Shown here in pieces: positions 7,608-43,697 of a stretch of 64,000 bases of DNA. Each line of letters opens with the position of its first letter. Position 1 is the first letter of the stretch. The translations under genes were made by a program, and so were the position numbers. The DNA is from Candidatus Micrarchaeota archaeon (GTDB lineage Archaea; Micrarchaeota; Micrarchaeia; Anstonellales; Bilamarchaeaceae): contig CAZBAM010000003.1 in the NCBI GenBank assembly GCA_964490215.1, positions 1,489 through 65,488 on the forward strand, written 5' to 3'. The notes below the pieces were generated by a model. That model ran no database searches, had not been told where the DNA came from, and worked only from the letters and a program-made list of their open reading frames with translations.

Positions 7608-8018
7608 ATGCAGCCACGGCGTTACTACCGTCAGATAGTCATACGCTACATATCCGTCCCTGCCAACGAGGACGATACGAACAGCGAGATAGATTATATA
7701 TACCAGTGCCTTGGCCTGGGTGACGAGCGTGACGACGTGGGGCTCTCGGTCTTCCGCGCGCTCGTGAAGGCGAGCATGCACGGCACAGGGATATCCTCAA
7801 GGGACATAATGGCACTGGGCGAGGTCAGCCAGGCCGCCGTGATATACCACCTCAACCTTTTCCAGCGCTCGGGCCTCGTAGTCAAGGACGGCCGGATGTA
7901 CTACCTGCGCGGCCATTCCCTGGAGCAGACGCTCGAGGAGATGGAGAACGACATGCACCGCAGGTTCGGCTACCTGCTGGGAATAGCGAGAAAAATAGAA
8001 GAAAAAAAAGGATTTTGA
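7608..8018 (+). CDS. Winged-helix (ArsR-like) transcriptional regulator divergent from grpE-dnaK
   Basis: ISSRDIMALGEVSQAAVIYHLNLFQRSGLVVKDGRMYYLR helix-turn-helix plus wing pattern. Confidence 0.75.
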   Translation: MQPRRYYRQIVIRYISVPANEDDTNSEIDYIYQCLGLGDERDDVGLSVFRALVKASMHGTGISSRDIMALGEVSQAAVIYHLNLFQRSGLVVKDGRMYYLRGHSLEQTLEEMENDMHRRFGYLLGIARKIEEKKGF

Positions 8019-8032
8019 GCGCTTCCTGCCCG

Positions 8033-8968
8033 TCAGCCCGCACCATGGATGGTTACGGCATACGTCCTGTCATACGCCAGGGGCGTCCAGGCTGTTTCGC
8101 TTGCCACGCCAGTCCTGCTCTCCACGGACAGCAGCATCTGCCTCGTGTAGGCGTTTCCGGGGGCTTGCTTGTCCACGGTAACGTAGTGCAGGTAGACCGC
8201 ATCGCTGACCAGGCTCACGTCCTCGGTCTGCTCAACCTTCAGCACAGCCCAGTACGTTCCAGGCGCGAGGACCGGCTTCTCAGCGAATTCAAACGGAATC
8301 CAGTTGTCGCTGAGCGTCGTGACGTTTACTGGCCTTTTCACCGAGGCGATGACTGCGCCAGGGTTGCCGGCACTGTCTGTCCTCAGCTCAAGGACCAGGT
8401 TGGTGCCCGGCTGCGTGGTTGACGCGAGCCGCTTCAGGAACATCCTCACCTTGTCCACGGTCATCTGGTTCTCAACCGCGAATGCCACGCCCCTCCATTC
8501 CTTGAAGGATATGGCATCGGTTTCCAGGCCCCTGGTGTCGCTGCTCCCGAGCGGGGCCACTTCCCAGTCCCTGGAAAGCACGGTCGTGCCGTCGCTCTCA
8601 ACCGTGAGCTTCACTGTGCCGTCCTTTTTCGGCGCTATGGCGAAGTCCAGCGGCGACGTGTCGTTGCCGGCAGGCGAGGCTGCCGCGGCCTCTGTGCCGT
8701 CAAGCTTCACGACCATCCGCTTGCCTGCGGCGCAGGTGGCCGTTGCCGCGAGGTGGCTCGTCTTTGAGAGCACCCCGGCGGCCAGGTCCGAGAAAGAATA
8801 CGCAGGCGTGCAGGCCGCTGCCTGCTGGCCGCCTGTGCCAGCGCCCTGTGTTCCGCCAGTTCCCTTGGCCGAGCCGTTGCCTGCCGGGTGTGAAGCCGGC
8901 GTGCCTCCTATGCCCAGGCATCCGAACACGAGCAGGGATGCCAGTATCAGTACTATAATCGCTTTCAT
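8033..8968 (-). CDS. Surface lipoprotein of unknown function with Gly/Thr linker and beta-rich domains
   Basis: MKAIIVLILASLLVFGC lipobox-like signal; C-terminal LELRTDSAGNPGAVIAS..W..F....L.PGTYWAVL pattern. Confidence 0.7.
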   Translation of the reverse strand: MKAIIVLILASLLVFGCLGIGGTPASHPAGNGSAKGTGGTQGAGTGGQQAAACTPAYSFSDLAAGVLSKTSHLAATATCAAGKRMVVKLDGTEAAAASPAGNDTSPLDFAIAPKKDGTVKLTVESDGTTVLSRDWEVAPLGSSDTRGLETDAISFKEWRGVAFAVENQMTVDKVRMFLKRLASTTQPGTNLVLELRTDSAGNPGAVIASVKRPVNVTTLSDNWIPFEFAEKPVLAPGTYWAVLKVEQTEDVSLVSDAVYLHYVTVDKQAPGNAYTRQMLLSVESRTGVASETAWTPLAYDRTYAVTIHGAG

Positions 8969-9130
8969 GTGCTCATCCTCCCGTTCCTCACTATCTGCTG
9001 CCAGCCTATCGGATGGAAAATTTAAAAAATAGCCGATGGGTGCAGAGTATCTGCCTCATCCTAGGCGATATGATGTAACCCCTTAAGGACTTATGAGAAC
9101 CGCCTGGAAGCATGGAAAGTTCCTGACGCA

Positions 9131-10102
9131 CTACGAGGTTTGCCGTTCCCTTCCCTTCTGGCGGGCAAGCTCATCCGGTGAAACCTTCATCTGCTCAAAT
9201 GCAAGGTCCTTCCCGTCTACCCTCGCCCCCTTCACTGCTATGGGAAAGTCTGCAGGTGGAGCAAGCTTCTCCACGACCGCATACGGAGCGCCGAAAAAGC
9301 CCTTTTTTATCTGATATCTGGCCACGGGATTGTGTCGGTTGTCCTCCATCAGGATTTCGTCCTTGTCACACCTGAGCGTGCAGGCCTTGCCGTCTTTCAT
9401 CAGCATCTCCTGCGAGCCTTCTGCATTCGTCTTTATGCTCCTGATGGCCCCCTTCCTGTCGTAGACGTCAACATCTATCCTCTTGTCATTATGGTAGCTG
9501 ACGCCCACCTCCCAGGTGGTACCGCGCGGTGCTGGTTCAGGCGCTGCAGCTGGCCTCTCCACCCTGCGAGTGACTACTTTGGGCCGCACGGCCTCTGTGT
9601 CCGGTTCTGCGGGCTGCGATTCCAGTGGAATCTCAGGTTCAGCCAGCTCCTTTTCTTCCGGCATGTCCCTGACGATTTTCACCTCAGGTTTCCGTGCAGA
9701 ATAGGACGGATACGCAACCTCTACACCGGACTTCTGCCGGGCGATTGCAAGCACCTTGTCCGTATTCGCCAGGAAGTCCCCGGCGCTCTCAGTCCCGCCC
9801 AGTGCCTTGGCCAGGCGGGTATAACCTACCCTGCCAAGCCCATAGACGTAGAGAATGTCGTAGAGCGCTCTCTCGAACTCTTCGCGCCGGCCGTTAGCTG
9901 CCGCTTCAGCGTAAAAATCCTGCAGCTTCCCGGTGCTAATTGGCGACAACATCCTGGAATATTCACGTATGGCGTCATAGGCGATTCCAGCCTTTCTCGT
10001 TGCAAGCACCCCGTCTTCAGGTTCGCCAAGCAGCGTATAGACGTGCGCCCTAACCAGCTCCTTGTCGTCCACTTTGCTTTTGCCATCGGCCATGTAATGC
10101 AC
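9131..10102 (-). CDS. Hypothetical protein (two domains joined by a Pro/Glu-rich linker)
   Basis: 323-aa ORF with host-like codon style and upstream TATA-like sequence (~10125); no recognised motif. Confidence 0.55.
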   Translation of the reverse strand: MHYMADGKSKVDDKELVRAHVYTLLGEPEDGVLATRKAGIAYDAIREYSRMLSPISTGKLQDFYAEAAANGRREEFERALYDILYVYGLGRVGYTRLAKALGGTESAGDFLANTDKVLAIARQKSGVEVAYPSYSARKPEVKIVRDMPEEKELAEPEIPLESQPAEPDTEAVRPKVVTRRVERPAAAPEPAPRGTTWEVGVSYHNDKRIDVDVYDRKGAIRSIKTNAEGSQEMLMKDGKACTLRCDKDEILMEDNRHNPVARYQIKKGFFGAPYAVVEKLAPPADFPIAVKGARVDGKDLAFEQMKVSPDELARQKGRERQTS

Positions 10103-10219
10103 CGGTGAGCCTTTTGCACGCTATTTTTATAAGCAGTTATGCCTCCCATCCGGCAAGCCCCGGACACCTGCCGGCACGAAACGTCCGGCGAGGCCAGTGA
10201 AAAAAACCAAAGCGCGGAA

Positions 10220-11275
10220 TCAGACCAGCTTCCTGGCAGCGAACAACTCAGCCTGCAGCATGCCGTTGCCAGCCGCGCCGCGGACCAGGTTGTGGGAGAG
10301 GCAGGTGTATTTTACCCCGAGGACCGGGTCCTGGCGGATTCTTCCGATGACGACGCTCATGCCATTGCCCTCAAACACGTCCATCCTCGGCTGTGGCCTG
10401 TTGTTCTCTTCCCTGACCACGATAGGCCTGACTGCGGACGGGAGCCCGAGCTTTTGCGTCTCTGCGGTGAACGAGCCCAGCGTTTTCTTCACTTCCTCCA
10501 CAGAAGGCCGTTTTTCAAGCTCTACGACTACCGTTTCCGTGTGCCCGTCCGCGACCGGAACGCGGTTGCACGAAGCGCTGATTACGACCGGGTCTTCCTT
10601 CACTGCGCCGTTTTGCAGGGAACCAAGGATTTTTTTCGGCTCGCGCTCCAGTTTCTCCTCTTCCCCGCCGATGAACGGTATGACGTTGCCAATCGCGTCC
10701 AGCGAGGCTACGCCTGGGTAGCCGGCTCCGCTGAGCGCCTGCATCGTAGACACGACGACCCTCTTCAAGCCGTATTTTTTGAGCGGGAAGAGGCTGAGGA
10801 CCAGCTGGGTGGTTGAACAATTCGGGTCCGTGGTGATGAAGCCGCTCCAGCCACGCCTTTCCTTTTGTATCCTGATGAGTTCCGCGTGCTCCGGGTTCAC
10901 CTCCGGGACGATGAGCGGGACGTCCGGCTCCATGCGGTTGTCGCTCGCTTTTGAGAACACGCCCAGCCCCTCGCGCGCAAGGTCCTGCTCCACTGTTTTC
11001 GCGAGGCCGCCGGGGAGGCAGGAGAAAACGAAGTCCGCGTCGCACCCAGAAACGATTCCCTTCGCGCTGCCTTCCAGGAGCGTCATCCGCGCCGCTTCAG
11101 CGCCAAGCGGGGTTTCCACGTGCCAGTTCACGGCTTCGCCGTATTTCCTGCCAGCGTTCTTTTCGCTGGCGGCGACTGCCACCAGTTCGAACCAAGGGTG
11201 CTTTTCAAGCATTGACACTATCCGTTGGCCGACCAGGCCGGTGGCTCCCAGCACTACGACTCCCTTTTTGTTCAT
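10220..11275 (-). CDS. asd: Aspartate-semialdehyde dehydrogenase
   Basis: VLGATGLVGQ, PLIVPEVN, DPNCST catalytic Cys, QALSGAG, SHNLVRGAAG. Confidence 0.96.
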   Translation of the reverse strand: MNKKGVVVLGATGLVGQRIVSMLEKHPWFELVAVAASEKNAGRKYGEAVNWHVETPLGAEAARMTLLEGSAKGIVSGCDADFVFSCLPGGLAKTVEQDLAREGLGVFSKASDNRMEPDVPLIVPEVNPEHAELIRIQKERRGWSGFITTDPNCSTTQLVLSLFPLKKYGLKRVVVSTMQALSGAGYPGVASLDAIGNVIPFIGGEEEKLEREPKKILGSLQNGAVKEDPVVISASCNRVPVADGHTETVVVELEKRPSVEEVKKTLGSFTAETQKLGLPSAVRPIVVREENNRPQPRMDVFEGNGMSVVIGRIRQDPVLGVKYTCLSHNLVRGAAGNGMLQAELFAARKLV

Positions 11276-12621: not shown

Positions 12622-12792
12622 TAACGATATTATTTGGACGACGATTTAAAGAACTTGCGATAGGGATAACTGGCAAAACGCCTTGTCTTTTGCCTGCTGG
12701 CAAAAACAGGCGATTTCCCATGAGATTTATCGTAGCCGAACCGCAGGGAGGCCGTGAATCGGTTTTTTGGTTCTTTTTTCCTAAAAAAGAAC

Positions 12793-12805
12793 ACGCCTTG
12801 GCCGG
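12793..12805 (-). repeat. att-like duplicate of the tRNA-Asp 3' terminus
   Basis: Exact match to 15897-15909, same orientation, downstream of the tRNA. Confidence 0.7.
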
Positions 12806-13091
12806 TGAATAAAGCTGCCTTTGTTTTCCTACCTCGGAGAAACAACATCAAGCAGGTATATACAGGATATTGCAGGAAGAATTTTTATTCGTTTTGGAGA
12901 CCCCCCGTCTCAAAGTAAGAGATAAAAAGACAAGCAGGCCAGATATATCCTTGATCCAAATGGAAGCGGGGGTAGTGAAAGAATGAAATCGGCCAGATCG
13001 GGAAGTAATGACCGGATCAAGGCCTCGGAGTTAAAGACGATGATTTCAGGATTAGGAGAATGCGAATCGCGAGGATTTCCTGCCCCTCCTT

Positions 13092-13394
13092 ATGGTCATG
13101 GAATCCGCCATAATGCAGTTCTACCGCAGCCACAGGGAAATCAGGGACGAGGAGGTGCTGGCCTCCCTGAAAGATATCCGGGATGCTCCCGGCCATCCTT
13201 CCGATGATGAGCTTTCCGAAGAAATCCGCGATGAGATACGGAAGATTCTTGTCAAAACGCACAAATATGACGAACGGGACGTTTCCCTTGCCGCCTCATA
13301 TGTCCTCAACTCGGTCAAGCGGCATCATTCATCCGGCGGGAGCCGCGGGTACCTGGAGTTCATGGACGGGATTTTCGGGAAGTCCCTGGAATGA
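13092..13394 (+). CDS. Hypothetical protein in islet, possibly 5'-frameshifted
   Basis: 100-aa ORF; protein-like reading ENANREDFLPLL continues upstream to a TAG at 13053. Confidence 0.5.
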   Translation: MVMESAIMQFYRSHREIRDEEVLASLKDIRDAPGHPSDDELSEEIRDEIRKILVKTHKYDERDVSLAASYVLNSVKRHHSSGGSRGYLEFMDGIFGKSLE

Positions 13395-13424
13395 CGATGC
13401 GAAAGAGTATTTTGAGGAAATGTT

Positions 13425-14993
13425 ATGCTTGTTACCACTGGAGATATAGAGCTCAATCCGGAGTTTCAGAAAGCATTCGACCTGATGGAGAACAGTTCCC
13501 ATAGTGTTTTTGTAACCGGCAGGGCAGGGACGGGGAAATCGACGCTGCTGCAATACTTCCGGGGTAGCAGCAGGAAAAACCTGGTGGTCCTTGCGCCTAC
13601 GGGCGTTGCGGCGCTGAACGTGCTGGGCCAGACCATTCATTCATTTTTCCATTTCAAGCCGGACATACTGCCTGATTCGGTGCGGAAATTCAAAAATAAT
13701 GGAACCTACAAGATGATTGATGCCATCGTCATCGATGAAATCTCGATGACGCGCGCGGACCTCCTCGACTGCGTGGACAGGTTCATGCGCCTCAATGGCA
13801 GGGACAGGCAAAAGCCGTTCGGCGGATGCCAGATGATCTTCATCGGGGACCTGTACCAGCTGCCGCCGGTGGTCGGCGGCAGGGAAAAAGAGCTGTTCAG
13901 TACGCATTATGCCGGGCCTTATTTTTTCAATTCCGAGGCGATGAAAACTTTTGAGATGGAGTTCGTGGAGCTTGAGAAAAATTACCGGCAGAAGGACGAG
14001 AAGTTCATCAGCATCCTGAACAGCATCAGGAACAACACTCCGACACCAGATGATCTTGAAATGCTGAATACCCGGTTAAACCCTAATTTCACTCCGCCCG
14101 AAAACGAGTTTTACGTTACTCTTACAACCACAAACGCTGATGCGGATGCCGTCAATGAGCATAAGCTCTCGCTGCTCCCGCACAAGGCATTTGTATACCG
14201 GGCTGAGATAAGAGGATCGATAAGTCCGGCCCACTATCCGACAAGCGAGAAGCTTTCCCTGAAAAAGGGCGCCCAGGTGATGCTGCTGAATAACGACTCC
14301 GGCAAAAGATGGGTTAACGGAAGCATGGGGAAAATCACAGATATACGGCATTCTGAAGATGAGGATATAATCGTCGTCCAGTTGACTTCCGGTGAAAAAG
14401 TGCAGGTCGCGCCGCACAAGTGGGAGGTTTTCGATTTTTTCTTTGATAGGAAGGCAAACAGGATTGAAGCTGACGTTATCGGTTCCTTTACCCAATATCC
14501 GCTCAGGCTTGCATGGGCAGTGACAATACACAAGGCCCAGGGCAAGACCTTCGATCGGGTGGTACTCGATATCGGGAAAGGCACATTTGTGCATGGCCAG
14601 GCGTATGTCGCTTTAAGCCGGTGCAGGACCCTGGACGGGATCGTGCTGAAAAAGCCGCTTGAGAAAAAACACGTTTACATGGACTGGCGCGTGGTGAAAT
14701 TCCAGACTAATTTCCAGTACCGGAAATCTGAGGAGGCGCTGCCCCTCGCAGAAAAGATAGCGCTGATAGAGGAGGCAATCGCAGGCAGGTTTCCCCTCGA
14801 AATCACCTACCTCAAGGCGAACGACATCAAGAGCAGGAGGATAGTTCTCCCGAAGAAAGTCGGGGAGTTTGAATACATGGGAAAAAGCTTCCTCGGGCTT
14901 GCGGCCTATTGCATGAAAAGGAAGGAGGATCGGAACTTCAGGATAGACCGGATGCTGGAAATAAAGCAGGTACGGAAAGAAAAGGAAAGATAA
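13425..14993 (+). CDS. Pif1-family (SF1B) helicase fused to a C-terminal WYL domain
   Basis: GRAGTGKST, APTGVAA, DEISM, GDLYQLPPV, NYRQ, QYPLRLAWAVTIHKAQG, GQAYVALSR; C-terminal LEITY..SRRIVLP..L.AYC..RKEDRNFRIDRM. Confidence 0.9.
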   Translation: MLVTTGDIELNPEFQKAFDLMENSSHSVFVTGRAGTGKSTLLQYFRGSSRKNLVVLAPTGVAALNVLGQTIHSFFHFKPDILPDSVRKFKNNGTYKMIDAIVIDEISMTRADLLDCVDRFMRLNGRDRQKPFGGCQMIFIGDLYQLPPVVGGREKELFSTHYAGPYFFNSEAMKTFEMEFVELEKNYRQKDEKFISILNSIRNNTPTPDDLEMLNTRLNPNFTPPENEFYVTLTTTNADADAVNEHKLSLLPHKAFVYRAEIRGSISPAHYPTSEKLSLKKGAQVMLLNNDSGKRWVNGSMGKITDIRHSEDEDIIVVQLTSGEKVQVAPHKWEVFDFFFDRKANRIEADVIGSFTQYPLRLAWAVTIHKAQGKTFDRVVLDIGKGTFVHGQAYVALSRCRTLDGIVLKKPLEKKHVYMDWRVVKFQTNFQYRKSEEALPLAEKIALIEEAIAGRFPLEITYLKANDIKSRRIVLPKKVGEFEYMGKSFLGLAAYCMKRKEDRNFRIDRMLEIKQVRKEKER

Positions 14994-15049
14994 TCTTGCC
15001 GTCGGATGGCTTAAAAATCATTACCAGCTTAATTTCAATCGGTGTTAAG

Positions 15050-15343
15050 ATGAAAGATATAGATTCTATAACGCGTATCCTGGCCGGCCACAGGAAGGAC
15101 ATCGCCGAAAGGTTCAAAGTTAAGGAGATTGGCGTATTCGGTTCCTATGTGCGGGGCGAGCAGGACCGGAAAAGCGACATCGACGTGCTGGTTTCGTTCA
15201 CGGAACCTATCGGTCTCTTCCAGTTCATGGAGCTTGAGGAATACCTTGGTAGCATCCTTGGGACGAAGGTAGACCTCGTTTCGAAAAAGGCGCTTAAGCC
15301 ATACATCGGCGCACGCATACTGAAGGAGGCCGTTTTCGTATGA
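15050..15343 (+). CDS. mntA: Minimal nucleotidyltransferase (MNT) antitoxin
   Basis: IGVFGSYVRGEQ..SDIDVLV..VDLV motif; ATG at 15050. Confidence 0.9.
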   Translation: MKDIDSITRILAGHRKDIAERFKVKEIGVFGSYVRGEQDRKSDIDVLVSFTEPIGLFQFMELEEYLGSILGTKVDLVSKKALKPYIGARILKEAVFV

Positions 15344-15693
15344 AAGGAGAGCGGGATTTCCGTGATTATCTCGCGGACATCCTCCGCTCGGTAAACGAGA
15401 TCGAGAGCTTCATCGATGGGGTGGATCGCAAGAGTTTTTCTGCAGATCGGAAAACGGTAAACGCGGTCGTGCGGAGCCTGGAAGTCATCGGAGAAGCAGC
15501 TAAGAAAATTCCAGAAACGGTGAAGGAAAAGCACCCGGAGATCCCATGGAAAGAGATGTCCGGGATGCGGGACAAGCTTATCCACGAATACTTCGGGGTG
15601 GATGAGGATATCGTCTGGACGGTCGCTACTCAAGAGCTTCTGCCTTTGAAACCCGCGCTTGAGTTGCTTTTGAAAGAGCACGGAGTGAAATAA
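15340..15693 (+). CDS. hepT: HEPN (DUF86) RNase toxin
   Basis: LEVIGEAAKKIP, HPEIPWKEMSGMRDKLIHEYFGVD (Rx4H motif); ATGA overlap with MNT. Confidence 0.9.
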   Translation: MKGERDFRDYLADILRSVNEIESFIDGVDRKSFSADRKTVNAVVRSLEVIGEAAKKIPETVKEKHPEIPWKEMSGMRDKLIHEYFGVDEDIVWTVATQELLPLKPALELLLKEHGVK

Positions 15694-15897
15694 CCCAAAT
15701 GCATACTGGATACGGACTGGAAACTGGCGCTGGTGAAGGACTGACTGATTTTGAGGCCACATACCAGAGAGCTGTCAATCCGCTACCGGAAAGGTGGATT
15801 TAATGGCCATACAGAGCCTACAATTTCGCTCCGTACTTCTTCTCAAACTGTTTCGCGCCCTGCTTTCCGAACCCCCTCTTCCGACGTGGGATAAAAA

Positions 15898-16121
15898 CGC
15901 CTTGGCCGGGATTCGAACCCGGGTCGCAAGAGTTCCGTTCCGCCTTACAGCCCGTTTTGGGCCGCCTTTTCCTAAACGCACAAGAACGATGTTTCGTTCT
16001 TGGCGCAGCGGGAACGTATCGACGTTCCCGCACGAGGCGGGATGACAGTCTTGTATGCTAACCATTGAGCGCCGAAGGCGTTCAAATCCCGAACGCATTC
16101 AAGGCTCTACACTACCAAGGC
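15898..16121 (-). tRNA. tRNA-Asp(GUC) with two introns (exons 16121-16107, 16064-16043, 15932-15898)
   Basis: Spliced 72-nt cloverleaf: GCCTTGG/CCAAGGC acceptor, CAAGA-CTGTCAC-TCTTG anticodon arm, GGTTCGAATCC T arm; 42-nt intron at 15/16 and 110-nt intron at 37/38 with relaxed BHB junctions. Confidence 0.93.
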
Positions 16122-16240
16122 ATGATACGCGAAACATGTCACACGCGGAACTCCGCAGCTTCCGCGCCTGAAGAGTTATGTCTTTCTGCTGACTTACTTT
16201 TAAAAAACAATCGCCGGCTCCTGAGGATTCCGACGGGTGG

Positions 16241-16257
16241 AAGAAAACCTTTATAAT
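16241..16257 (+). promoter_or_regulatory. BRE/TATA-like promoter for purH
   Basis: AAGAAAAC-CTTTATAAT about 35 nt upstream of the ATG. Confidence 0.5.
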
Positions 16258-16290
16258 GAGGAAATCTCATAGTATTTAACTGGTTCTTCT

Positions 16291-17841
16291 ATGCGGGTAA
16301 AAAGGGCACTCATCAGTGTTTACAATAAGGATGGCGTGACCGGGCTGGCCAGGGCCCTGGCAGAGCTCGGCATAGAAATCGTCTCCAGCGGCGGCACCGC
16401 GAAACTGCTTTCCGAGAGCGGCATAAAGGTCATTGACGTTTCCGACTTCACCGGCTCTCCTGAGATAATGGACGGCCGGGTGAAGACGCTGCACCCGAAG
16501 ATACACGGAGCCATACTCGCCGACCGCAACAACCTCCAGCACCTGGAGGAGGCGAAGAAGCTCGGCATAAGGTTCATAGACCTGGTGGTGGTAAACCTCT
16601 ACCCGTTTGAGGAAACGGTGCTGAAAGGCGGCGGGCTCAGGGACGCGATGGAGAAGATAGACATCGGCGGCCCCACGCTCATCCGGGCCGCAGCGAAAAA
16701 CTGCGCGGCCGTGGCCGTGGTCTGCAACCCTGCCAGGTACGCTGAAATCGCCGAAGAGCTCAGGAAGGCGAAGGGCGAGCTGTCCGACCGGACGCTGGAG
16801 CGGCTGGCCGTGGAGGCCTGGGAGCACGTGGCGCACTACGACGTCGTGATAGAGCAGTTCTTCAGGCGCACGTTCGGCTACCAGGACGAGTTCCCTGAAT
16901 ACCTGAACCTCACGTTCCACAAGAAGCAGGACCTGCGCTACGGCGAGAACCCGCACCAGCGCGCCGCATTATACCGCGACGAGCACTACCGCAACCCGTC
17001 CGTGCTTGACGCGCCGCAGCTCCAGGGCAAGGTGCTGTCCTACAACAACGTGCTGGACTGCAACTCCGCGTTCAAGATAATCCGCGAGTTCGACGAGCCG
17101 ACCGCGGTCATAGTCAAGCACAACAACCCCTGCGGCGTCGCGTCGGCAGCTGACATACTCACGGCCTACAAGATGGCAAAGGCAGTGGACCCCGAGGCCG
17201 CGTTCGGGGGCATAGTCGCGCTCAACCGGCCCGTCGGCGAGGAGCTGGCGAAGGAGATAACCGGAAGGTTCGTGGAAATCGTCATGGCGCCGGAATTCTC
17301 AGCAGGCGCGCTCGAGGTGTTCAAGGGAAAGAAGAACATCCGCGTCTTTGAGAACAAGGGCACGACCGTTAAGCGCATGCCATACCGGAAATACCGCTCG
17401 GTCCTCGGCGGCCTGCTCGTCCAGGACGCGAACGTGAAGCTCCTGGACGAGGTGCAGGTCGTCACCAAGCGCAAGCCGAGCGAGAGCGAGACGAAGGCGC
17501 TGCGCTACGCCTGGAAAATCGTGAAATACGTCCGGTCCAATGCCATCGTGTACGCGCGCGAGAACCGCGCTGTCGGCATAGGCGCAGGGCAGATGAAGCG
17601 CATAGATGCGGCCAGGCTCGCGGCCATGATAGCCAAGGACAACAAGGAAACGCTCAAAGGCTGCGTCATGGCGAGCGACGCGTTCTTCCCGTTCCGCGAC
17701 GGCATTGATTACGCCGCGTCGCTGGGCATAACCGCTGTCATCCAGCCGGGCGGGTCCATAAACGACAAGGAGGTCATAGCAGCTGCCGACGGGCACGGCA
17801 TGGCCATGGTCTTCACCGGGATACGGCATTTCAGGCATTAG
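16291..17841 (+). CDS. purH: Bifunctional AICAR formyltransferase/IMP cyclohydrolase
   Basis: [57 protein letters not shown]. Confidence 0.97.
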
Positions 17842-17889
17842 CGCTCTTTTTTTAAATCGTTATGCACACTATAAATATGTGTAATCATT

Positions 17890-18096
17890 ATGAATGCCGT
17901 CCCAAGTCGTCCTGTCCCCCCGCCCATCAGGCCCAGCTGCTTAGCCGTCAGGGACGTGTATAAAAACGACCCCCGGCTGCTTGGCGACCCTGTTCCTTTC
18001 CCGTGCAACCGCCCAATCCACCCCTGGCGCCAGCCCCTGCCCTTCATTGACCGGCTCAAGAAAGCCGCCGCGAGGCTCGTGGGCGCAGACTACTGA
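17890..18096 (+). CDS. Possible small hypothetical protein
   Basis: TATAAATA just upstream; Pro-rich 68 aa; no motif. Confidence 0.3.
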   Translation: MNAVPSRPVPPPIRPSCLAVRDVYKNDPRLLGDPVPFPCNRPIHPWRQPLPFIDRLKKAAARLVGADY

Positions 18097-18992
18097 GCGT
18101 GTTTCCTCTTCCTGTGCTCCAGCGCATGGCACGCCTTCCGGCTCCGGCACGAGCACCCTGACGGCTCCAGCTGCACGGTCACGTGCGAGATGCCGAATTC
18201 GTGGCGCATCTTCTCCTCTATTTCCAGCGAGAGCGCCCGCGCCCTGACTAGTTCCATGTTGTCCGTCTCCACGTGCATCATGGCGAACACGAACTCCGAG
18301 CACGTGCGCCAGACGTGGACGTCGTGCACGCCCTTCACCCCCCTGACCGAGCGGACCGCCCGGCCTATCTTCTCAACTTCGCTCCCGTGCGGCGCTGATT
18401 CCAGCAGTATGGAAAGCGAGCCGCGCAGGATGTTGTAGGCGCTGAACATTATCAGGCCGGATACGAGCAGGCTGACCGCGATGTCTATGACGTACTGCCC
18501 GGTCAGCAGTATGGCCACCGCGCCGATTATCACGCCCACGGAAGAGAGCGCGTCGCCTGCCGCATGCACGAACGCGCTGCGCATGTTCAGGTTCTCCTCG
18601 TGCTGGAGATGGTAGGCCACATAGAGGTTGCCCGCAAGGCCGATGAGCGACGTCAGCAGCATCGGCAGGCCGTTTATGGTGTAGCCTGTGCCGAAGCGGC
18701 CGAACGCCTCGTAGGCGATGAGCAGCGCCATGGCCACGAGCAGCAGGCCGTTGAACGCGGCCGCGAAGACCTCAAGCCGGTGGAAGCCGAACGTCCTGCG
18801 CGACGTGGGCGTGCGCGTCGCGAGCCAGAGCGCGGTGAGCGATGCGCCGATGGCTATCACGTCCGAGAATACGTGGGCGCTGTCGCCCAGGAGCGCAAGG
18901 CTGTTGGAATAGTGCCAGCCCGCGAGCTGCACGACCAGCACCACGGTCGTAACCAGAAACGCCCTTCCGAGTTCCTTTACGCCGTCATCCAT
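18090..18992 (-). CDS. Cation diffusion facilitator (Zn/Co/Cd exporter)
   Basis: SLALLGDSAHVFSD, TFGFHRLE, NMRSAFVHAAGD, HDVHVW, HVTVQLE; real start ATG 18992. Confidence 0.92.
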   Translation of the reverse strand: MDDGVKELGRAFLVTTVVLVVQLAGWHYSNSLALLGDSAHVFSDVIAIGASLTALWLATRTPTSRRTFGFHRLEVFAAAFNGLLLVAMALLIAYEAFGRFGTGYTINGLPMLLTSLIGLAGNLYVAYHLQHEENLNMRSAFVHAAGDALSSVGVIIGAVAILLTGQYVIDIAVSLLVSGLIMFSAYNILRGSLSILLESAPHGSEVEKIGRAVRSVRGVKGVHDVHVWRTCSEFVFAMMHVETDNMELVRARALSLEIEEKMRHEFGISHVTVQLEPSGCSCRSRKACHALEHRKRKHAQ

Positions 18993-19000
18993 GCCGCCAC

Positions 19001-20026
19001 CTACAAGCCGTCGCCGTACCTGCGGGCCAGCGCGGTGTATTTCTCCATCCTCTCCCTGCTCTCCCTGTTCTTCGCCTGCAACCATTCTATGGCAGCTATC
19101 TTCGCCCGCACGTTCGCCCTGTAGCATTTGTAAAGGCCCAGCAGCCTCAGGAGCCCATTGTCGCCGGTCCGTGCCACGTATTCGCTGACGAAAACGTCCG
19201 CCAGGTCCTCCCTGCCGTGCGCGTCCAGGTCCATGGCCATGAACGCGATTTCGCTGGCCACGTCCACGCAGCGGAACTCCCTGCTGAACTCTATGCAGTC
19301 TATTATCACGATGTCCCTGCCCGACACGAAGATATTGCCAGAATGGAGGTCGCCGTGGCAGTCCCTGACTTTCCCCTCTTTGATGCGCTCCATCAGAAGG
19401 TCCCTGTTCCTGCTTATGAACGCCGCCGACTTCGCCAGCACCACGTCCACCTCGTTCCCCATCCCGCACGCCTCCTCTATGGCGCCCCTGAATTCTGCAA
19501 GGTCGTTTATCTGCCTGCCTGCCATCTCAGGGGTGTTGTAGCCCTGGACTGCCTCAATGCGGCCGTGGAACGCGGCAATAATCGCGGCCAGCTTCCTGAC
19601 GTGCGATTCGTCTATCTTCCCTTCGTTCAGCAGGCGGCTCATCATCCGCGCCTGGTCAAGCCGCTTCATCCTGACTGCGTAATCGACAAGGTCGCCGGCA
19701 ACCGCGCCGCCTCCCCCTCCGCGCCGGCCTCCGGCCGCTCCGCTTTCGGTGATTGACAGCCCGCCGCCTTCCTTGCCTTTTCTGCCTTCCCTGCATACGT
19801 TCACCACGCCCAGGTAGACGTCCGGCGCCAGCCTGCGGTTGAGCCGCACCTCCTCCCCGCAGAAGAACTTCCTTTTTTCCAGCGTGGAGAAGTCCAGGAA
19901 TGAGAATTTCACGGGCTTCTTTATCTTGTAAGCGTATGCGCCGGCCAGCAGTATCCAGGAGATGTGCGTCTCCATCAGCTCCGCATGCATGCCATGCGCC
20001 AGCGCCCTGACCTCCTCGCCGTTCAT
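19001..20026 (-). CDS. Aminoglycoside-phosphotransferase-like kinase (COG2187 type)
   Basis: ETHISW, KIKKPVKFSFLDFSTLEKR, E.RLNRRLAP, DCHGDLH.GNI, IIDCIEF. Confidence 0.85.
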   Translation of the reverse strand: MNGEEVRALAHGMHAELMETHISWILLAGAYAYKIKKPVKFSFLDFSTLEKRKFFCGEEVRLNRRLAPDVYLGVVNVCREGRKGKEGGGLSITESGAAGGRRGGGGGAVAGDLVDYAVRMKRLDQARMMSRLLNEGKIDESHVRKLAAIIAAFHGRIEAVQGYNTPEMAGRQINDLAEFRGAIEEACGMGNEVDVVLAKSAAFISRNRDLLMERIKEGKVRDCHGDLHSGNIFVSGRDIVIIDCIEFSREFRCVDVASEIAFMAMDLDAHGREDLADVFVSEYVARTGDNGLLRLLGLYKCYRANVRAKIAAIEWLQAKNRESRERMEKYTALARRYGDGL

Positions 20027-25358: not shown

Positions 25359-25367
25359 AGTGAGAAA

Positions 25368-25497
25368 TCCCGTCGGCCTGATTTGAACAAGCAACCGCCC
25401 CGTATCCACTCGTTAAAAGCGAGCAAACCAAACTACAGCGGGGCGCTCTACCGTTACCCGTGTTCCGGCCTGCCGGACCACTTTGAGCTACGACGGG
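25368..25497 (-). tRNA. tRNA-Tyr(GUA) with two introns (exons 25497-25483, 25453-25433, 25403-25368)
   Basis: Spliced 72 nt: CCCGTCG/CGACGGG acceptor plus discriminator A, CCCCG-CTGTAGA-CGGGG, GCTTG-TTCAAAT-CAGGC; two 29-nt introns at 15/16 and 37/38; TATA-like TTATAAAG ~30 nt upstream. Confidence 0.92.
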
Positions 25498-25708
25498 ATG
25501 AGCAGCATGAAACCTGCTGAGAAGTTCTTATAAAGTTAGGCGTTGCGGGGCTGTTAAGCGAATCGTTCCCCTAGGCATGCCGGAAATCACGCGGAACTCA
25601 AACTAATCGCAGTTGCCGCACAAGCCAGAACGGCCGCCCTGCGGCGGCTCTCAATGCTGGATTAACCAAACATATACTTTTATATAACTTTGGTTACTTA
25701 GTATCGCC

Positions 25709-38038: not shown

Positions 38039-41000
38039 ATGGAAAAACCGAAAAAAGTCCTCGTCATAGGCTCAGGGCCGATAGTCATAGGCCAGTCCGC
38101 TGAATTTGATTATTCCGGCGCACAGGCGTGCCGTGCGCTGCGCGAGGAGGGCGTGCAGGTGGTGCTGGTCAATTCCAACCCCGCGACCATCCAGACCGAC
38201 AAGGACACCGCGGACATCGTGTACATAGAGCCGCTCACGGCGCCTGTCATTGAGACGATAATAGCTAAGGAGAAGCCCGAAGGCATAATCGCGACCATGG
38301 GCGGGCAGACCGGCCTCAACCTCGCCATGGAACTCCACCGCGGCGGCGTGCTGAAGAAGCACGGCGTGCGGTTCCTCGGCACCGACGCCGGGGCCATAGA
38401 CGCTGCCGAGTCAAGGGAGAAGTTCAACCGCCTGATGGAAAAGCTGGGCATGCCAATCCTGCCCGGCAGGGTGGTGAAAGACGCCGCAGGCGCGGTGAAG
38501 TCCGCAGCCTCAATGGGATATCCGGTGATGGTCCGGCCGTCATTCACGCTCGGCGGCACAGGCGGCGGCACTGCCTACGACGAGAATGAACTGCTGAAGG
38601 TGATGGACCTCGCCCTGCGCCTGAGCGCCACCGGCGAGGCGCTGGTGGAGAAGAGCGTCATCGGCTGGGGCGAGTTTGAATACGAGGTCGTCAGGGACTC
38701 GCAGGGCAACGCGCAAATCATCTGCAACATGGAGAACGTGGACCCGATGGGCGTGCACACAGGCGAGAGCATAGTGGTCGCGCCGTCCCAGACGCTCAGC
38801 GACGCCGACCACCAGATGCTCCGCGACGCTGCCCTGAAAATCGCCCACGGCATAGGAATCCAGGGCGGCTGCAACGTCCAGTTCGCCATGAACCAGGAGA
38901 CCGGCGAATTCACGGTGATAGAGGTCAATCCCAGGCTGTCGCGCTCCTCTGCTCTGGCGTCCAAGGCCACCGGATACCCAATCGCCAGGGTGGCTACCAA
39001 GATAGCGCTCGGCCACAGCCTGCACGAGATACGAAACGCCATAACAGGCACCTCGGCAGCGTTTGAGCCTGCCCTTGACTACGTGGTCGTGAAAATCCCG
39101 CGCTGGCCATTTGACAAGTTCCCGAAAATCCCGCGCACCATAGGCACCCAGATGAAAAGCACAGGCGAGGTGATGGCCATAGGCCGCACCTTCCAGGAGG
39201 CGCTCAACAAGGCCATCCGCAGCCTTGAGGTCAAGATTCCTGCGAAGATAAACCCGGACGAGCACCTGTTCCCGCCGACAGACCAGCGGCTGTTCGCCCT
39301 GCTGGAGGCGCTCCGCACCGGAAGGAGCGTGGACGCGCTGCATGAAAAGACCTGGATAAACAGGTGGTTCCTCCACCGCATGGCCGGCATGGTCGCCATG
39401 GAGCGGAAAATCGCAGGCGGGAAGATGTCGCGGGAGCTCATGCTGGAGGCCAAGCGCAACGGATTCTCGGACGCGCAGGTCGCGGCGCTCACCGGCAGCG
39501 GAGAACTGGAGGTCAGGAAGCAGCGCAAGGGCTGGGGCATACTTCCCACCTACAAGATAGTTGACTCGTGCGCTGGCGAGTTCGCGGCCCTCACGCCCTA
39601 TTACTATTCAGTTTACGAGGGCGAGAACGAGGCAGGCCCGCTGGAAGGGAAGAAAATCGCGGTCATAGGCGCAGGGCCCATACGCATCGGCCAGGGCATA
39701 GAGTTTGACTACTGCTGCTCCCACGCTGCGTTCGCGCTGCGCGAGCTCGGCTGCAGGAGCATCATGATAAACAACAATCCCGAGACCGTGAGCACTGACT
39801 TTGACTCCAGCGACCGGCTCTACTTTGAGCCGCTCACGTTTGAGGACGTGATGAACGTGCTGGAGAACGAAAGCGCGGACGGCGTCATCGTCCAGCTCGG
39901 CGGGCAGACCAGCATAAACCTGGCTGAGAGGCTGCACGCGCAGGGCGCGAAGCTGCTTGGCACGCCGCTGGACGGCATAGACATAGCAGAGGACAGGGAG
40001 AGGTTCAGGGCGCTCGCCCACAAGCTCGGCATCCTCCAGCCTGAGAACGGCGTTGCAACAAGCGAGGCCCAGGCGCTTGAGGCAGCCTCGCGCATCGGCT
40101 ATCCGGTGGTGGTGAGGCCGAGCTACGTCATCGCCGGCAGGGCGATGGAGATAGTCTACAACGAGGAAGACCTGCGGGCCTACATCCACGACGCAGTGGA
40201 CGTCAGCATGAACCGGCCGGTGCTCATAGACAAGTACCTTGACAACGGCATAGAATGCGAGGTGGACGCGGTAAGCGACGGCAGCCGCGTCTTCATAGGC
40301 GGCATAATGGAGCACATAGAGCCTGCCGGCGTGCATTCCGGCGACGCTAACATCGTCCTCCCCTCGCTGCGGCTGACGCCGAAGGAGCTCGCGACCATAA
40401 CCGATTACACTGAAAAGATATCGCGGGCGCTCGGCATCGTCGGCCTCGTCAACATACAGTTCGTTGCCAGGAAGGGCCTGATATACGTCCTTGAGGCCAA
40501 CCCCCGCGCGAGCCGCACGGTGCCGTTCGTCAGCAAGGCGATTGGCATACCACTCACGAAACTCGCGGTCCGCGCGATGCTCGGCGGCAAGCTTCCCGAG
40601 GACTTAAGGGGAATCGGCGCGGGAACACGAACCGGCGCAGGGTCAGGAAGCGGCGCGGGAAGCAGTGCAAGCGAGACGAAGGCGAAACCCGGCCACTACG
40701 CCGTAAAGAGCGTGGTCTTCCCGTTCCTGAAGCTGCTGGGCGCTGACCTGCGGCTCGGCCCTGAGATGCGGAGCACCGGCGAGACGATGGGCATAGGAAG
40801 GACGTTTGAGATGGCCTACTACAAGGCGCTGCTGGCCGCCGGCATCAGGCTTGAGGAAGGCAGGAAGCACAGCGCGTTCCTGAGCGTGCGCGACGAGGAC
40901 AAGAAGGACGTGCCGAAGCTGGCAGCCATTCTCAAGAAACTGGGCTTCTCCATATACGGCACGCTGGGCACGGTGGGGGCAATAGCCGGAGCCATCACAG

Positions 41001-41251
41001 TGCCGAAAATCGGCAAGGGCCACCCTGACGCGCTGGAGCTGATAGAGTCCGGCACGGTGACTCTGGTGGTCAACACGCCGACGCGCGGGGGCAGGTCGCA
41101 CACGGACGGCTTCAGGATGCGCAGGGCGAGCCTCCAGAGCGGCATCCCGTGCATAACCAACCTCAGCACTGCCTACGAGCTGCTCAAGGCCATGGACATC
41201 CTCAGCAAGAAGGAGCTGGAGATAGAGCGCGTGGACAAATACTGGCGATGA
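38039..41251 (+). CDS. carB: Carbamoyl-phosphate synthase large subunit
   Basis: IGSGPIVIGQSAEFDYSG, duplicated ATP-grasp domains, IEVNPRLSRSSALASKATG, MGS-like C-terminal domain. Confidence 0.98.
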   Translation: MEKPKKVLVIGSGPIVIGQSAEFDYSGAQACRALREEGVQVVLVNSNPATIQTDKDTADIVYIEPLTAPVIETIIAKEKPEGIIATMGGQTGLNLAMELHRGGVLKKHGVRFLGTDAGAIDAAESREKFNRLMEKLGMPILPGRVVKDAAGAVKSAASMGYPVMVRPSFTLGGTGGGTAYDENELLKVMDLALRLSATGEALVEKSVIGWGEFEYEVVRDSQGNAQIICNMENVDPMGVHTGESIVVAPSQTLSDADHQMLRDAALKIAHGIGIQGGCNVQFAMNQETGEFTVIEVNPRLSRSSALASKATGYPIARVATKIALGHSLHEIRNAITGTSAAFEPALDYVVVKIPRWPFDKFPKIPRTIGTQMKSTGEVMAIGRTFQEALNKAIRSLEVKIPAKINPDEHLFPPTDQRLFALLEALRTGRSVDALHEKTWINRWFLHRMAGMVAMERKIAGGKMSRELMLEAKRNGFSDAQVAALTGSGELEVRKQRKGWGILPTYKIVDSCAGEFAALTPYYYSVYEGENEAGPLEGKKIAVIGAGPIRIGQGIEFDYCCSHAAFALRELGCRSIMINNNPETVSTDFDSSDRLYFEPLTFEDVMNVLENESADGVIVQLGGQTSINLAERLHAQGAKLLGTPLDGIDIAEDRERFRALAHKLGILQPENGVATSEAQALEAASRIGYPVVVRPSYVIAGRAMEIVYNEEDLRAYIHDAVDVSMNRPVLIDKYLDNGIECEVDAVSDGSRVFIGGIMEHIEPAGVHSGDANIVLPSLRLTPKELATITDYTEKISRALGIVGLVNIQFVARKGLIYVLEANPRASRTVPFVSKAIGIPLTKLAVRAMLGGKLPEDLRGIGAGTRTGAGSGSGAGSSASETKAKPGHYAVKSVVFPFLKLLGADLRLGPEMRSTGETMGIGRTFEMAYYKALLAAGIRLEEGRKHSAFLSVRDEDKKDVPKLAAILKKLGFSIYGTLGTVGAIAGAITVPKIGKGHPDALELIESGTVTLVVNTPTRGGRSHTDGFRMRRASLQSGIPCITNLSTAYELLKAMDILSKKELEIERVDKYWR

Positions 41252-41416
41252 CGACGGTTAGGGATGAGTCTCTATTGAGGCGAGGATACCGAGATAAGAT
41301 AAAGCGTTTTCTTGTGACTGGGTATCAATAGTGTGGCTGGGGACGAAAGAAACAAGGATTAAATAAGGATTTGGGAAAGCTGGTTGATGGCAAGACAGAA
41401 GTAAGGAGATGGGAAA

Positions 41417-42067
41417 ATGGCAAATAAGAAAACAGAAAAAGAGGCTTTGAAGTTTATACTTACTGAACAAAAAAACCAGACGCAAATTCTGTCTGATATT
41501 AAAGAGAAAATCAAAAAATCTAGTGCGACACAAATAGCTATGCTTGCATTGGGTATTTTAGAGATTATTGTTGGACTAGCATATCTGGGTTTTGTAAATC
41601 TAACTAAAAAGGAAGCTGAGTTAGTGAAGCATAATGAAATATCTACTTCTGAAAAATCGTCTTACCATATGCGTAAATCTACTACTCTCCTCACTGTCGG
41701 AAGCCTTTTTTTCTTATTGCTTATCACATCTTTGGGGTTTAACGTTAATGATTATCCAAATCTCAAGTTTGTGCAGTATTTTCTTATGGGTTTGTCACTG
41801 CTGGGTTTGGCTGCCATCTATGTCGGAATTATAGAACTATTTAGAAGCATGAAAGCAAGCGAAGAGTTTAACCCCGGAGTATTGTCGATTATTCCCCACC
41901 CACGTGTGTTAGGTTATTTTGTATTGGTTGGGATTTGGTTATGGGTAAGTTATACGCTTTTACCTAACTATCAGGATAATATAGTCCCATTAATAGTAGG
42001 AATTATCTTTGCTATTTTATTAATAGTATTGCCCCGGTCAGAAGTTGAAAAAACATTTAATAAATGA
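41417..42067 (+). CDS. Hypothetical multi-pass membrane protein
   Basis: 216 aa with about five hydrophobic segments; AT-rich codons. Confidence 0.65.
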   Translation: MANKKTEKEALKFILTEQKNQTQILSDIKEKIKKSSATQIAMLALGILEIIVGLAYLGFVNLTKKEAELVKHNEISTSEKSSYHMRKSTTLLTVGSLFFLLLITSLGFNVNDYPNLKFVQYFLMGLSLLGLAAIYVGIIELFRSMKASEEFNPGVLSIIPHPRVLGYFVLVGIWLWVSYTLLPNYQDNIVPLIVGIIFAILLIVLPRSEVEKTFNK

Positions 42068-42226
42068 TCAAGGTCGCTCGCCAGACCGTGATGACTTTTG
42101 TTGAAACTTCAACTCAGTGAATACATCCTGGTCGAAACTGTTTCAGTTAGCTTTCTGTGGGGGGTTCCCAAACCCGGGTCAACTAACGCCGCTTAATTAT
42201 CCGGGCTTGAATGCAAAATTCCATAC

Positions 42227-42967: not shown

Positions 42968-43123
42968 ACTTTCTTTTCCCAATGCAATCTTAAATTCCTT
43001 TCGTTTTAGATAGCGTTGCATACTCCTTCTCCCCAGCCTTACTGGCGCTGATGCCGCGGCCGCCCCCCAACGTCATAACCCGGCATGCCATCGTTTTAAT
43101 ATTTTGCCCACACAATATGCTAC

Positions 43124-43696
43124 ATGGCCTTCAATCGCGCGTGGTGCGACGCCCGCCGCGGAAAACGCGGCTGCCTCATGCACCGCGAACTGAACAATCC
43201 ACTCCCACGCCTTCCGCGTGGCGTCATATCTACCGCGCGGCATGCCGGGCTGGCAGGCACGGCGCAGGAACTGGCGAAGCTCAGGCGCATGCTGAACAGG
43301 TACAAAAAAAGCCCCTGCGACGTATGCAGCTACCTCGGCGACAGGAATATGGAGCCCATGCAGAATCTTATAAATGCCGTGAAGCAGGCAAGCTGCAAGG
43401 CCGGATTTGAGCAGAAGAATATCCATGCCGCTGCGACGTCCAGTAGTAGCGGCGCGTCAGGCATCCACGGCTTTGTCCTGGCAGAGCCGGGCAAGGAGCC
43501 GGTGGCCATGGATTTCACGTTCACCAATGTCCGGAAGTTCCTGGCGGTCCGGTTTAAAGGGCTGTTCGGCGGCGAGCCCCTTGCCGTGCCGTGCAGGAGC
43601 GTCATCGCGCGCATTCACCCTTCCAGAGTGGAAATAGAGCGGGTGCTGAGGGACGTTGAAATAGATGTGGCTGCCGTACCAGCTCAAACTGATTAG
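43124..43696 (+). CDS. Hypothetical protein
   Basis: 190-aa ORF; no recognised motif. Confidence 0.4.
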   Translation: MAFNRAWCDARRGKRGCLMHRELNNPLPRLPRGVISTARHAGLAGTAQELAKLRRMLNRYKKSPCDVCSYLGDRNMEPMQNLINAVKQASCKAGFEQKNIHAAATSSSSGASGIHGFVLAEPGKEPVAMDFTFTNVRKFLAVRFKGLFGGEPLAVPCRSVIARIHPSRVEIERVLRDVEIDVAAVPAQTD

Positions 43697-43697
43697 C

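Follow-up and report, generated by a model that had tools for sequence, protein, structure and literature searches.

Cis-mobilizable elements (CIMEs), known from Streptococcus thermophilus, are derived from integrative and conjugative elements (ICEs) by loss of the recombination and transfer modules, and can sit in arrays at a tRNA gene or another att site. In archaea, integrated mobile genetic elements (iMGEs), including those described as 'cryptic integrated elements', are inserted at the 3' ends of tRNA genes and delimited by a distal direct repeat (Krupovic et al. 2019, PMC6563490), two traits that recur in the locus described here. Integrated elements also leave fragments of tRNA genes (PMC9897764). 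In the literature that we searched, we found no description of tRNA-targeted integrated elements in DPANN archaea, and little on which mobile elements these organisms harbor and where such elements integrate. Here, we analyze a 64,000-nucleotide stretch (hereafter, the window) of contig CAZBAM010000003.1 from a Candidatus Micrarchaeota archaeon, in which an islet of about 3.1 kb, with a PIF1-family helicase gene and a toxin-antitoxin (TA) gene pair, adjoins the 3' end of a tRNA-Asp gene.

Features of this type are well documented (PMC6563490, PMC9897764), and the islet is a further case in a poorly explored lineage, where it provides a clean, comparatively validated horizontal acquisition in a DPANN archaeon. 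The island body (12806-15896) is, in our assessment, likely to be the remnant of a decayed plasmid- or virus-like element that was integrated site-specifically at the last ~12 nucleotides (nt) of the tRNA-Asp(GUC) gene and has lost its integrase along with most of its other genes.

An islet inserted at the tRNA-Asp 3' end

The tRNA-Asp gene (15898-16121) lies on the minus strand, so that "downstream of the tRNA" corresponds to lower coordinates. The 13-mer ACGCCTTGGCCGG is present in two exact plus-strand copies in the window, at 15897-15909 and 12793-12805, with no further match at one mismatch or fewer, and none of 100 shuffled windows contained two matches. In the tRNA-proximal copy, an attL-like core, 12 of the 13 nucleotides (15898-15909) are the 3'-terminal 12 nt of the tRNA and position 15897 is the first base of the trailer; the distal, attR-like copy reproduces the tRNA 3' end in 13 of 13 positions, in the same orientation, at the far boundary of the insert. 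With one mismatch, the repeat lengthens to 16 nt (12790-12805 and 15894-15909), and the putative recombination core is CCGGCCAAGGCG. A reading made earlier from the sequence alone (the sequence-only reading) had pointed out this repeat, in the same positions, and estimated its chance occurrence at ~1e-4. That figure is about right for a single pre-specified word, but if the final 26 nt of the tRNA may contribute any word that is 13 nt or longer and recurs in the same orientation within 5 kb, P = 1.3-1.6e-3 (20,000 shuffles), and even under this wider count the repeat is unlikely by chance. A 10-mer, CGCCTTGGCC, at position 30458 lies within a coding region and was rejected as a copy of the site, being a chance match.

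Look-ups of the exact LysC and PurH proteins gave no record, a LysC-based scan of species-representative genomes yielded no relative, and relatives were obtained through a protein database and look-up of the respective contigs. Two are informative: a sister species (L001/L002/L242; LysC 84% identical) and a relative represented by contigs from two wetland metagenomes (X1 and X2; ~94% identical in lysC). In the sister species, asd-lysC and purH flank the tRNA as they do in the window, yet lysC is only 55 nt from the tRNA end, and the helicase and both genes of the TA pair, encoding a minimal nucleotidyltransferase (MNT) and HepT, are missing. In X1 and X2, the tRNA, a native hairpin trailer of ~90 nt, and lysC are contiguous; compared with the window, these contigs skip 3,173 bp (joint 12719->15893) and have 39 nt of their own at the joint. 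The empty site that the sequence-only reading had proposed to look for, with lysC next to the tRNA, is thus found in the sister species, and in X1 and X2 with the trailer in between. Homology to both relatives picks up again at 15893, breaking at 15893-15897, that is, at the end of the tRNA, the exons of which are intact and identical to those of the sister. The island body of 3,091 bp is absent from both relatives. Furthermore, both occupied junctions are confirmed by two independent assemblies from other runs (L247 and L248), which match 13227-15927 and 12630-15064 of the window, respectively, at 100% identity.

The composition of the inserted DNA is foreign. As the sequence-only reading had noted, the interior is AT-richer: GC content is 0.44-0.53 across 12.6-16.4 kb (~0.48-0.53 in the island body) compared with ~0.60-0.64 in the flanks, and the drop in GC is accompanied by patches collinear with a plasmid- or virus-like contig considered below.

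The host belongs to the DPANN archaea, specifically to the Micrarchaeota/Iainarchaeota type, and is not a bacterium, given that the best named LysC matches (~40%) are from metagenome-assembled genomes (MAGs) of Diapherotrites and Micrarchaeota, the closest named PurH (87%) is that of 'Candidatus ainarchaeum sp. STA_33', and the tRNA 3' end is common mostly to Micrarchaeota MAGs. Genes in the window also include those for DnaK, CarB, and a long AMP-phosphorylase-like protein.

An intron-split target and its displaced trailer

The target gene is an archaeal tRNA-Asp(GUC) with two introns. The sequence-only reading was correct in placing a tRNA-Asp here, but the introns hide it from standard tools: ARAGORN at default settings and Rfam at gathering thresholds report no tRNA anywhere in the window, and relaxed Rfam detects the T-arm only (14.6 bits). 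Read along the minus strand from 16121 to 15898, the gene has a perfect 7-bp acceptor stem (GCCUUGG/CCAAGGC), a canonical T-arm, and discriminator G, with 152 extra nt in between; CCA is not encoded, and a T-run lies 3' of the gene. With introns allowed, ARAGORN places a gene at c[15897,16122], and its call of tRNA-Tyr(gta) with a 138-nt intron was rejected in favor of Asp(GUC) with two introns, 42-nt intron 1 in the D-loop (16106-16065) and 110-nt intron 2 at the canonical 37/38 position (16042-15933), which leave exons 16121-16107, 16064-16043, and 15932-15898. When both inserts are cut in silico, a 72-nt RNA results that default ARAGORN identifies as tRNA-Asp(gtc). The exon junctions are fixed by intronless orthologs, because among the loci with the common 3' end there are 145 intronless tRNA-Asp genes of 72-76 nt with the same exon sequences (~75 others are interrupted). 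The exons are 100% identical in the sister species, whereas the introns differ, intron 2 being ~46 nt long in the sister; and contigs from 4 metagenomes fuse 15932 to 16043, which are the exact predicted boundaries of intron 2. The predicted pre-tRNA fold has a z-score of -5.8. By eye, intron 2 fits an hBHBh' bulge-helix-bulge (BHB) motif with H = CUGU/ACGG, bulges CA-U and AA-C (the dash marking the cut), and h' = CCGCC/GGCGG (a perfect 6 bp in the sister), and intron 1 fits a relaxed motif only, with a U.U mismatch. Two other identities were ruled out, namely a tmRNA (Rfam matches the T-arm alone, at 14.6 bits, and G3:U70 is lacking) and a group I intron (the inserts are too short and have no Rfam match).

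Disrupted tRNAs are familiar from ARMAN-2/Micrarchaeum (Fujishima et al. 2011, PMC3239211), which likewise have several introns per tRNA that default finders miss, the BHB motif being strict at 37/38 and relaxed at other positions, a pattern read by eye in our case. The tRNA-Asp analyzed here differs in its combination of a D-loop intron with a 110-nt intron in the anticodon loop, for which splicing is predicted. The two introns do not prevent integration at this tRNA gene, because the recombination core is located in the last 12 nt. Moreover, because default finders overlook the anchoring tRNA, island-detection pipelines based on tRNA calls miss such islets in these lineages.

Compared with the sister, intron 2 contains an extra block of ~66 nt (~15968-16034) that consists of two perfect hairpins, GCGGGAACGT-CGAT-ACGTTCCCGC and CAAGAACGA-AACA-TCGTTCTTG; both are unique in the window, and the block was rejected as a repeat family. 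A second interrupted tRNA, Lys(UUU)-like, lies at 25364-25545 on the minus strand (L001 1606-1790), in a region 92% identical between the two species; it has a 54-nt intron in the sister and is detected in the window only by low-threshold ARAGORN. The same low-threshold search yields a tRNA-Arg(gcg) with a 182-nt intron at 60337-60613 (minus strand), which overlaps long open reading frames (ORFs) and is probably a false positive.

Beyond the distal repeat lies native DNA, as the integration model predicts. Specifically, 12672-12792 (minus strand) corresponds to the native trailer of tRNA-Asp, which the island has moved away from the tRNA by 3.1 kb. In relatives (L036, L101, L149, L158, and X1/X2), a homologous trailer of ~77-102 nt directly follows the tRNA and is composed of a variable first hairpin, a second hairpin with the 3' strand (C)AAGGCG, and a T-run. 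In the window, the 5' part (12792-12720) is lineage-specific, with the hairpin GTTCTTTTTT-AGG-AAAAAAGAAC, and is followed by the conserved terminator-like hairpin (12719-12672), which ends in CAAGGCG and a T-run. RNAalifold analysis of five sequences showed that three of the five outer-stem pairs (CGCCU/AGGCG) never vary and that seven inner pairs change on both sides yet remain paired. The 3' strand of this hairpin mimics the 3' end of the tRNA (CAAGGCG), and under a strict motif definition only a small clade has the hairpin (5 of 218 loci). Given its conservation and the location of tRNA and lysC on the same strand, where a TTTAAA box can be made out by eye ~24-30 nt before the lysC ATG, 12719-12672 is most simply interpreted as a putative terminator-like element that separates the tRNA from the lysC promoter. 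Because 12672-12792 is the displaced native trailer, the best model is a single integration bounded by the two 13-mers, the very boundaries drawn in the sequence-only reading.

Cargo, erosion, and a related element

The largest gene of the island (13425-14993, plus strand) encodes an intact superfamily 1B helicase of the PIF1 family with a C-terminal WYL domain (522 aa; Pfam PIF1 1.8e-29, WYL 1.2e-6; PHROG Dda-like helicase 6e-82). It aligns over its full length with the structurally characterized SsPif1 (8BNS; E = 2e-193; residues 5-516 versus query 8-516) and DdPif1 (8BNV; PMC9964779), and belongs to a very large, strongly conserved family, with more than 8,000 homologs (55-61% identity) in phyla of both bacteria and archaea. 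The same full-length architecture is found in TePif1 (bioRxiv 10.1101/163188) and in DdPif1 and SsPif1 (PMC9964779, PDB 8BNV/8BNS), which are encoded by chromosomal genes of thermophilic bacteria, whereas here the gene resides on the remnant of an archaeal mobile element and may serve either to replicate the element or to maintain the host genome.

The closest relative of the helicase (88% amino acid and 85.7% nucleotide identity) is encoded by an 18,072-bp contig, L243 (ENA ERZ27247960 k141_8257938); L244 was noted alongside it. L243 encodes an AAA+/winged-helix initiator-like protein, a HerA/FtsK-like ATPase with a winged helix-turn-helix, a resolvase, a Y1 transposase fragment, and the PIF1-WYL helicase, with many small ORFs on the same strand, a gene content that marks it as a putative plasmid- or virus-like element. 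Apart from the helicase gene, the island is collinear with L243 in a patch at 12925-13067 (plus strand) that resembles L243 5653-5787 (blastn 69.7% identity, E = 7e-11). This patch looks like a scar of gene fragments of the L243 type: the last codons of an AAA+ gene, which in L243 has Pfam matches to AAA_22 and a winged helix and thus an Orc1/Cdc6-like architecture, an intergenic spacer, and the opening 17 codons of the gene that follows (13016-13066, matching the first 17 aa of an L243 gene of 181 aa; tblastn E = 0.003). The scar and the helicase gene are 2.6 kb apart in L243 and 0.33 kb apart in the island.

A second truncated gene lies in between. The sequence-only reading listed the genes of the islet as a Pif1-WYL helicase, an MNT-HEPN pair, and a hypothetical gene; the former two hold, but the last is probably a 3' gene fragment. 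The ORF in question (13092-13394, plus strand; 100 aa) has no Pfam, PHROG, or PADLOC match and no homolog in the word index, whereas an exhaustive phmmer search produced 61 matches, all to the C-terminal parts of longer proteins, the best being to residues 394-492 of the 492-aa protein P0242 (69% identity). In tblastn comparisons, P0242 residues 383-492 map on 13062-13391, with no match for residues 1-382, and the homology begins 10 codons before the ATG of the ORF, exactly at the junction with the L243-like patch. The segment 13062-13394 therefore appears to hold the 3'-terminal ~110 codons of a P0242-like gene of ~490 aa, and the ORF is probably a truncated remnant, although it could be expressed as a stand-alone C-terminal domain. 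Taken together, the sequences indicate at least two deletion scars in the island.

Downstream of the helicase gene on the plus strand are a gene for a MntA-like MNT, the predicted antitoxin (14996-15343; Pfam NTP_transf_2 7.5e-18), and a gene for a predicted HepT (HEPN RNase) toxin (15340-15693; Pfam HepT-like 7e-30). The MNT most plausibly starts at TTG 14996 (the gene call in L247, 115 aa) or ATG 15050, not at 14909, given that the first 27 codons of the longer listed ORF mirror the 3' end of the helicase gene only. The two genes are adjacent and co-oriented, the ATG of HepT overlapping the MNT stop by 4 nt (ATGA, 15340-15343), and both catalytic motifs are intact, namely GSYVRGEQDRKSDIDV (GSX10DXD) in the MNT and RDKLIH (Rx4H) in HepT. 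The order of MNT and HEPN, the 4-nt overlap, both motifs, and the sizes (~98-115 aa and 117 aa) agree with type VII HepT/MntA systems (Yao et al. 2020, PMC7641770; PMC11586414); the present pair differs in residing within the remnant of an archaeal mobile element. With both catalytic motifs intact, stabilization of the islet by the MNT-HepT pair is plausible.

The suggestion in the sequence-only reading that the retained cargo may be defensive finds no support. In PADLOC, no component of a known anti-phage system matches over its full length: the helicase has partial, domain-level matches only (PDC-S68, type IV RecD, WYL), the MNT matches the candidate family PDC-S09, and HepT has no match. 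The helicase belongs to the ubiquitous PIF1-WYL family, and its closest copy is in a plasmid- or virus-like replicon.

The last 203 nt of the island before the tRNA (15694-15896) are non-coding, with overlapping ORFs that have no Pfam match. In related elements the integrase gene occupies this position; here there is none. No island ORF tested matches PF00589, and a search of the window with integrases from the clade, by tblastn and with a profile (hmmsearch), found nothing significant, neither an integrase nor a fragment. One match of the L117 integrase (12641-12739, tblastn E = 1.7) was discarded; it overlaps DNA homologous to the intergenic region of the sister. A split integrase of the SSV type was also considered and rejected, because the minus-strand ORFs that cross the repeats (12630-12851 and 15775-16098) have no Pfam match and are in different frames relative to the repeat, so that any fusion would be tiny. 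Lacking an integrase of its own, the islet is classified as a remnant, not as a functional element.

The remainder of the window differs from the relatives in several further respects. The window lacks a 289-aa PHP-domain gene that in the sister separates the tRNA from purH (16124-16290 versus L001 8839-9708): only 16181-16214 and the sequence from 16240 onward align, and ~866 bp are gone. Two segments of the window are absent from the sister: 8010-10223, with two ORFs (311 and 323 aa) without Pfam matches, and 17841-19036, with a gene for a cation-efflux (CDF) transporter of native-like GC content. Identity to X1 is mosaic over 16240-17837, reaching 99.2% in 16240-16958 and ~94% in 16935-17837 as well as in lysC and asd, pointing to recent recombination across a tract at the purH 5' end. 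A second low-GC patch (40000-44000; 0.48-0.53), the ORFs of which at 41417-42067 and 42227-43021 have no Pfam match, may be another acquired segment.

Reuse of the integration site and comparison with known systems

We surveyed 242 loci with the same tRNA end, fetched with up to 8 kb on either side, a scope that biases the detection toward small inserts. An extra copy of the tRNA end of at least 10 nt was found in 28 loci, on the downstream side in 27 of these (27:1), compared with ~2 expected by chance. After two loci were taken off the list of occupied sites (L029, with a 10-nt copy inside rpoB, and L217, with a 79-nt trailer-like spacer), ~25 genuine inserts remain, 0.5-6.4 kb in size and mostly AT-rich, with repeats of 10-35 nt and very diverse cargo. 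In L034, L072, L117, and L120, tyrosine integrases (PF00589, E = 5e-20) start 26-67 nt after the tRNA, and the 4-kb repeat-flanked insert of L064 retains only a C-terminal integrase fragment. Thus, elements with an integrase use this site, and there are inserts at intermediate stages of decay. The tRNA-Asp end is a recurrent hotspot in which full, decaying, and integrase-less inserts form a natural series for the study of erosion in very small genomes. The claim of an eroded integrated element devoid of an integrase, made in the sequence-only reading, is borne out by the empty sites, the two truncated gene fragments, and the integrases at the same tRNA end in other Micrarchaeota.

Several features of the other inserts at this site are of separate interest. 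In L129, L168, L175, L187, L053, L102, and L069, the first 40 nt of the insert contain a T-arm-like motif, for example, AAAGGTTCGAATCCTTT. In L175, the first 122 nt recur beyond the distal copy, suggestive of related elements arrayed in tandem. One family of inserts at the tRNA-Asp end carries archaeal pilin-like proteins.

These observations are best explained by the following scenario. The attP of an element would have recombined with the tRNA 3' end in a reaction of the tyrosine-recombinase type, presumably catalyzed by an integrase carried on an L243-like replicon. The copy supplied by the element would now complete the tRNA (15897-15909), and the original copy (12793-12805), along with the native trailer and terminator (12672-12792), would have been moved 3.1 kb away, separating the tRNA from lysC. 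Later internal deletions would have removed the integrase, the loss of which probably postdates the insertion, and most replicon genes, leaving two gene fragments, the intact PIF1-WYL helicase, and the intact MntA-HepT pair. Post-segregational toxicity of the TA pair, a useful helicase, or both may explain why these genes were retained. Excision of the islet would yield an empty junction ...CCTAAAAAAGAAC-ACGCCTTGGCCGG-GATTCGAACCCGG... (12780-12805 joined to 15910 onward) and a circle junction ...CGACGTGGGATAAAA-ACGCCTTGGCCGG-TGAATAAAGCTGCC....

Some of our results weigh against this interpretation. With no integrase, excisionase, or integrase fragment in the island, the integrase-mediated mechanism rests on analogy. 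No free element bearing the attP was found: L243 does not contain even the 8-mer, and IMG/VR contains neither an exact match to the 22-mer of the tRNA end nor a close relative of the helicase. The core is short, 12-13 nt compared with 10-35 nt at other occupied sites. The tRNA-proximal 73 nt of the trailer (12720-12792) are not homologous to the 39-43 nt in the X1/X2 trailer, so that the pre-insertion state is not exactly recovered; this part of the trailer is hypervariable among the relatives. Finally, the neighborhood contains several other insertions and deletions (indels) relative to the sister, and presence or absence alone is weak evidence; the specific signal is the coincidence of the breakpoints with the tRNA end and the repeats.

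The alternative that comes closest, and that we nevertheless consider unlikely, is that the islet is alive, an integrase-less cassette akin to a CIME, a satellite, or an integron cassette that is mobilized in trans by a tRNA-Asp-specific tyrosine integrase encoded at another place in the genome or by a co-resident element. Both att-like repeats are intact and exact with no recombinase between them, integrases specific for the site exist in the clade, ~25 other loci harbor small repeat-flanked inserts (0.5-2.3 kb) without an integrase and with diverse cargo at the same tRNA end, and some of these look like tandem arrays. However, the truncated genes of the island bespeak decay and not a designed cassette, and no integrase is encoded among the scanned ORFs of the 64-kb window. 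Further, the island shares no arm sequences with any other insert, and no homolog of its proteins (the 100-aa ORF, helicase, MNT, and HepT) occurs beside the tRNA in the 242 loci, both of which argue against a circulating cassette; nor was a second copy of the cargo found at another site, L247 and L248 being 100% identical pieces of the same locus. A broader version of this idea, to which we likewise give little credence, is that the tRNA-Asp 3' end serves as a gene-capture platform in Micrarchaeota/Iainarchaeota, where small integrase-less modules, delimited by copies of the tRNA end of 10-35 nt, are moved in trans by a dedicated family of tyrosine integrases, the L034 type. Were this the case, modules encoding pilin-like, HD-domain, hydrolase-like, and GNAT-like proteins, TA pairs, and helicases would be inserted, stacked, and exchanged at this site, the islet being one of them, and the platform would be an archaeal analog of integron cassettes, CIME accretion, or tycheposons in genomes of ~1 Mb.

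It is still less probable that two successive integrations took place, with 12686-12792 (107 nt) an older remnant beside which the island accreted. The 8-nt ACGCCTTG at 12678-12685, inside the trailer hairpin, would bound this remnant as a third copy of (A)CGCCTTG; homology to the sister stops exactly there, at 12685, the 5' part of 12686-12792 differs from the X1/X2 trailer, and arrays at tyrosine-recombinase sites are known (PMC6563490). Yet an 8-mer alone is not significant (P ~0.7-0.8), and this one is the 3' strand of a hairpin that is conserved, with compensatory changes, after the tRNA of relatives, including the island-free X1 and X2; once that hairpin became apparent, the 8-mer was downgraded as the mark of an older integration. 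In the sister, which has no trailer, the tRNA end meets the region upstream of lysC precisely at CGCCTTG, and the simplest reading is that the sister trailer was deleted between two copies of CAAGGCG. We find it very improbable that the segment is ancestral and was lost independently in the sister species and the X1/X2 relative. The window and the sister do differ by several other indels within 25 kb, but two independent precise losses would be needed, the X1/X2 joint is not at the repeats and hence is not an excision product of the window configuration, and acquisition is indicated by the repeats, the 10-point drop in GC, the gene fragments, and a helicase gene with 86% nucleotide identity to its counterpart on an element-like contig. 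Least credible of all is a chance repeat or an assembly chimera, with the DNA brought in by illegitimate recombination. Such an explanation could draw on the short core and the assembly of the window from a metagenome, but it is countered by the low probability of the repeat (P ~1.5e-3), its position exactly at both homology breakpoints, the 27:1 bias toward downstream copies across the clade, and the two independent assemblies that reproduce both junctions at 100% identity.

If the islet is, as we favor, the remnant of an integrated element, the archaeal iMGEs targeted to tRNA genes are its nearest described counterparts. Besides the mode of insertion, the resemblance extends to the foreign composition, the empty site in relatives, and the replication-type cargo, that is, the helicase and the fragment of an AAA+ initiator (PMC6563490). 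The islet departs from these elements in the absence of an integrase, its length of only 3.1 kb, the truncated genes, the 12-13-nt repeat, and the DPANN host. With CIMEs, it shares the flanking att-like sites, the lack of integrase and transfer genes, and an apparent origin by deletion; it differs from them in its archaeal host and in that mobilization in trans is, for the islet, purely hypothetical.

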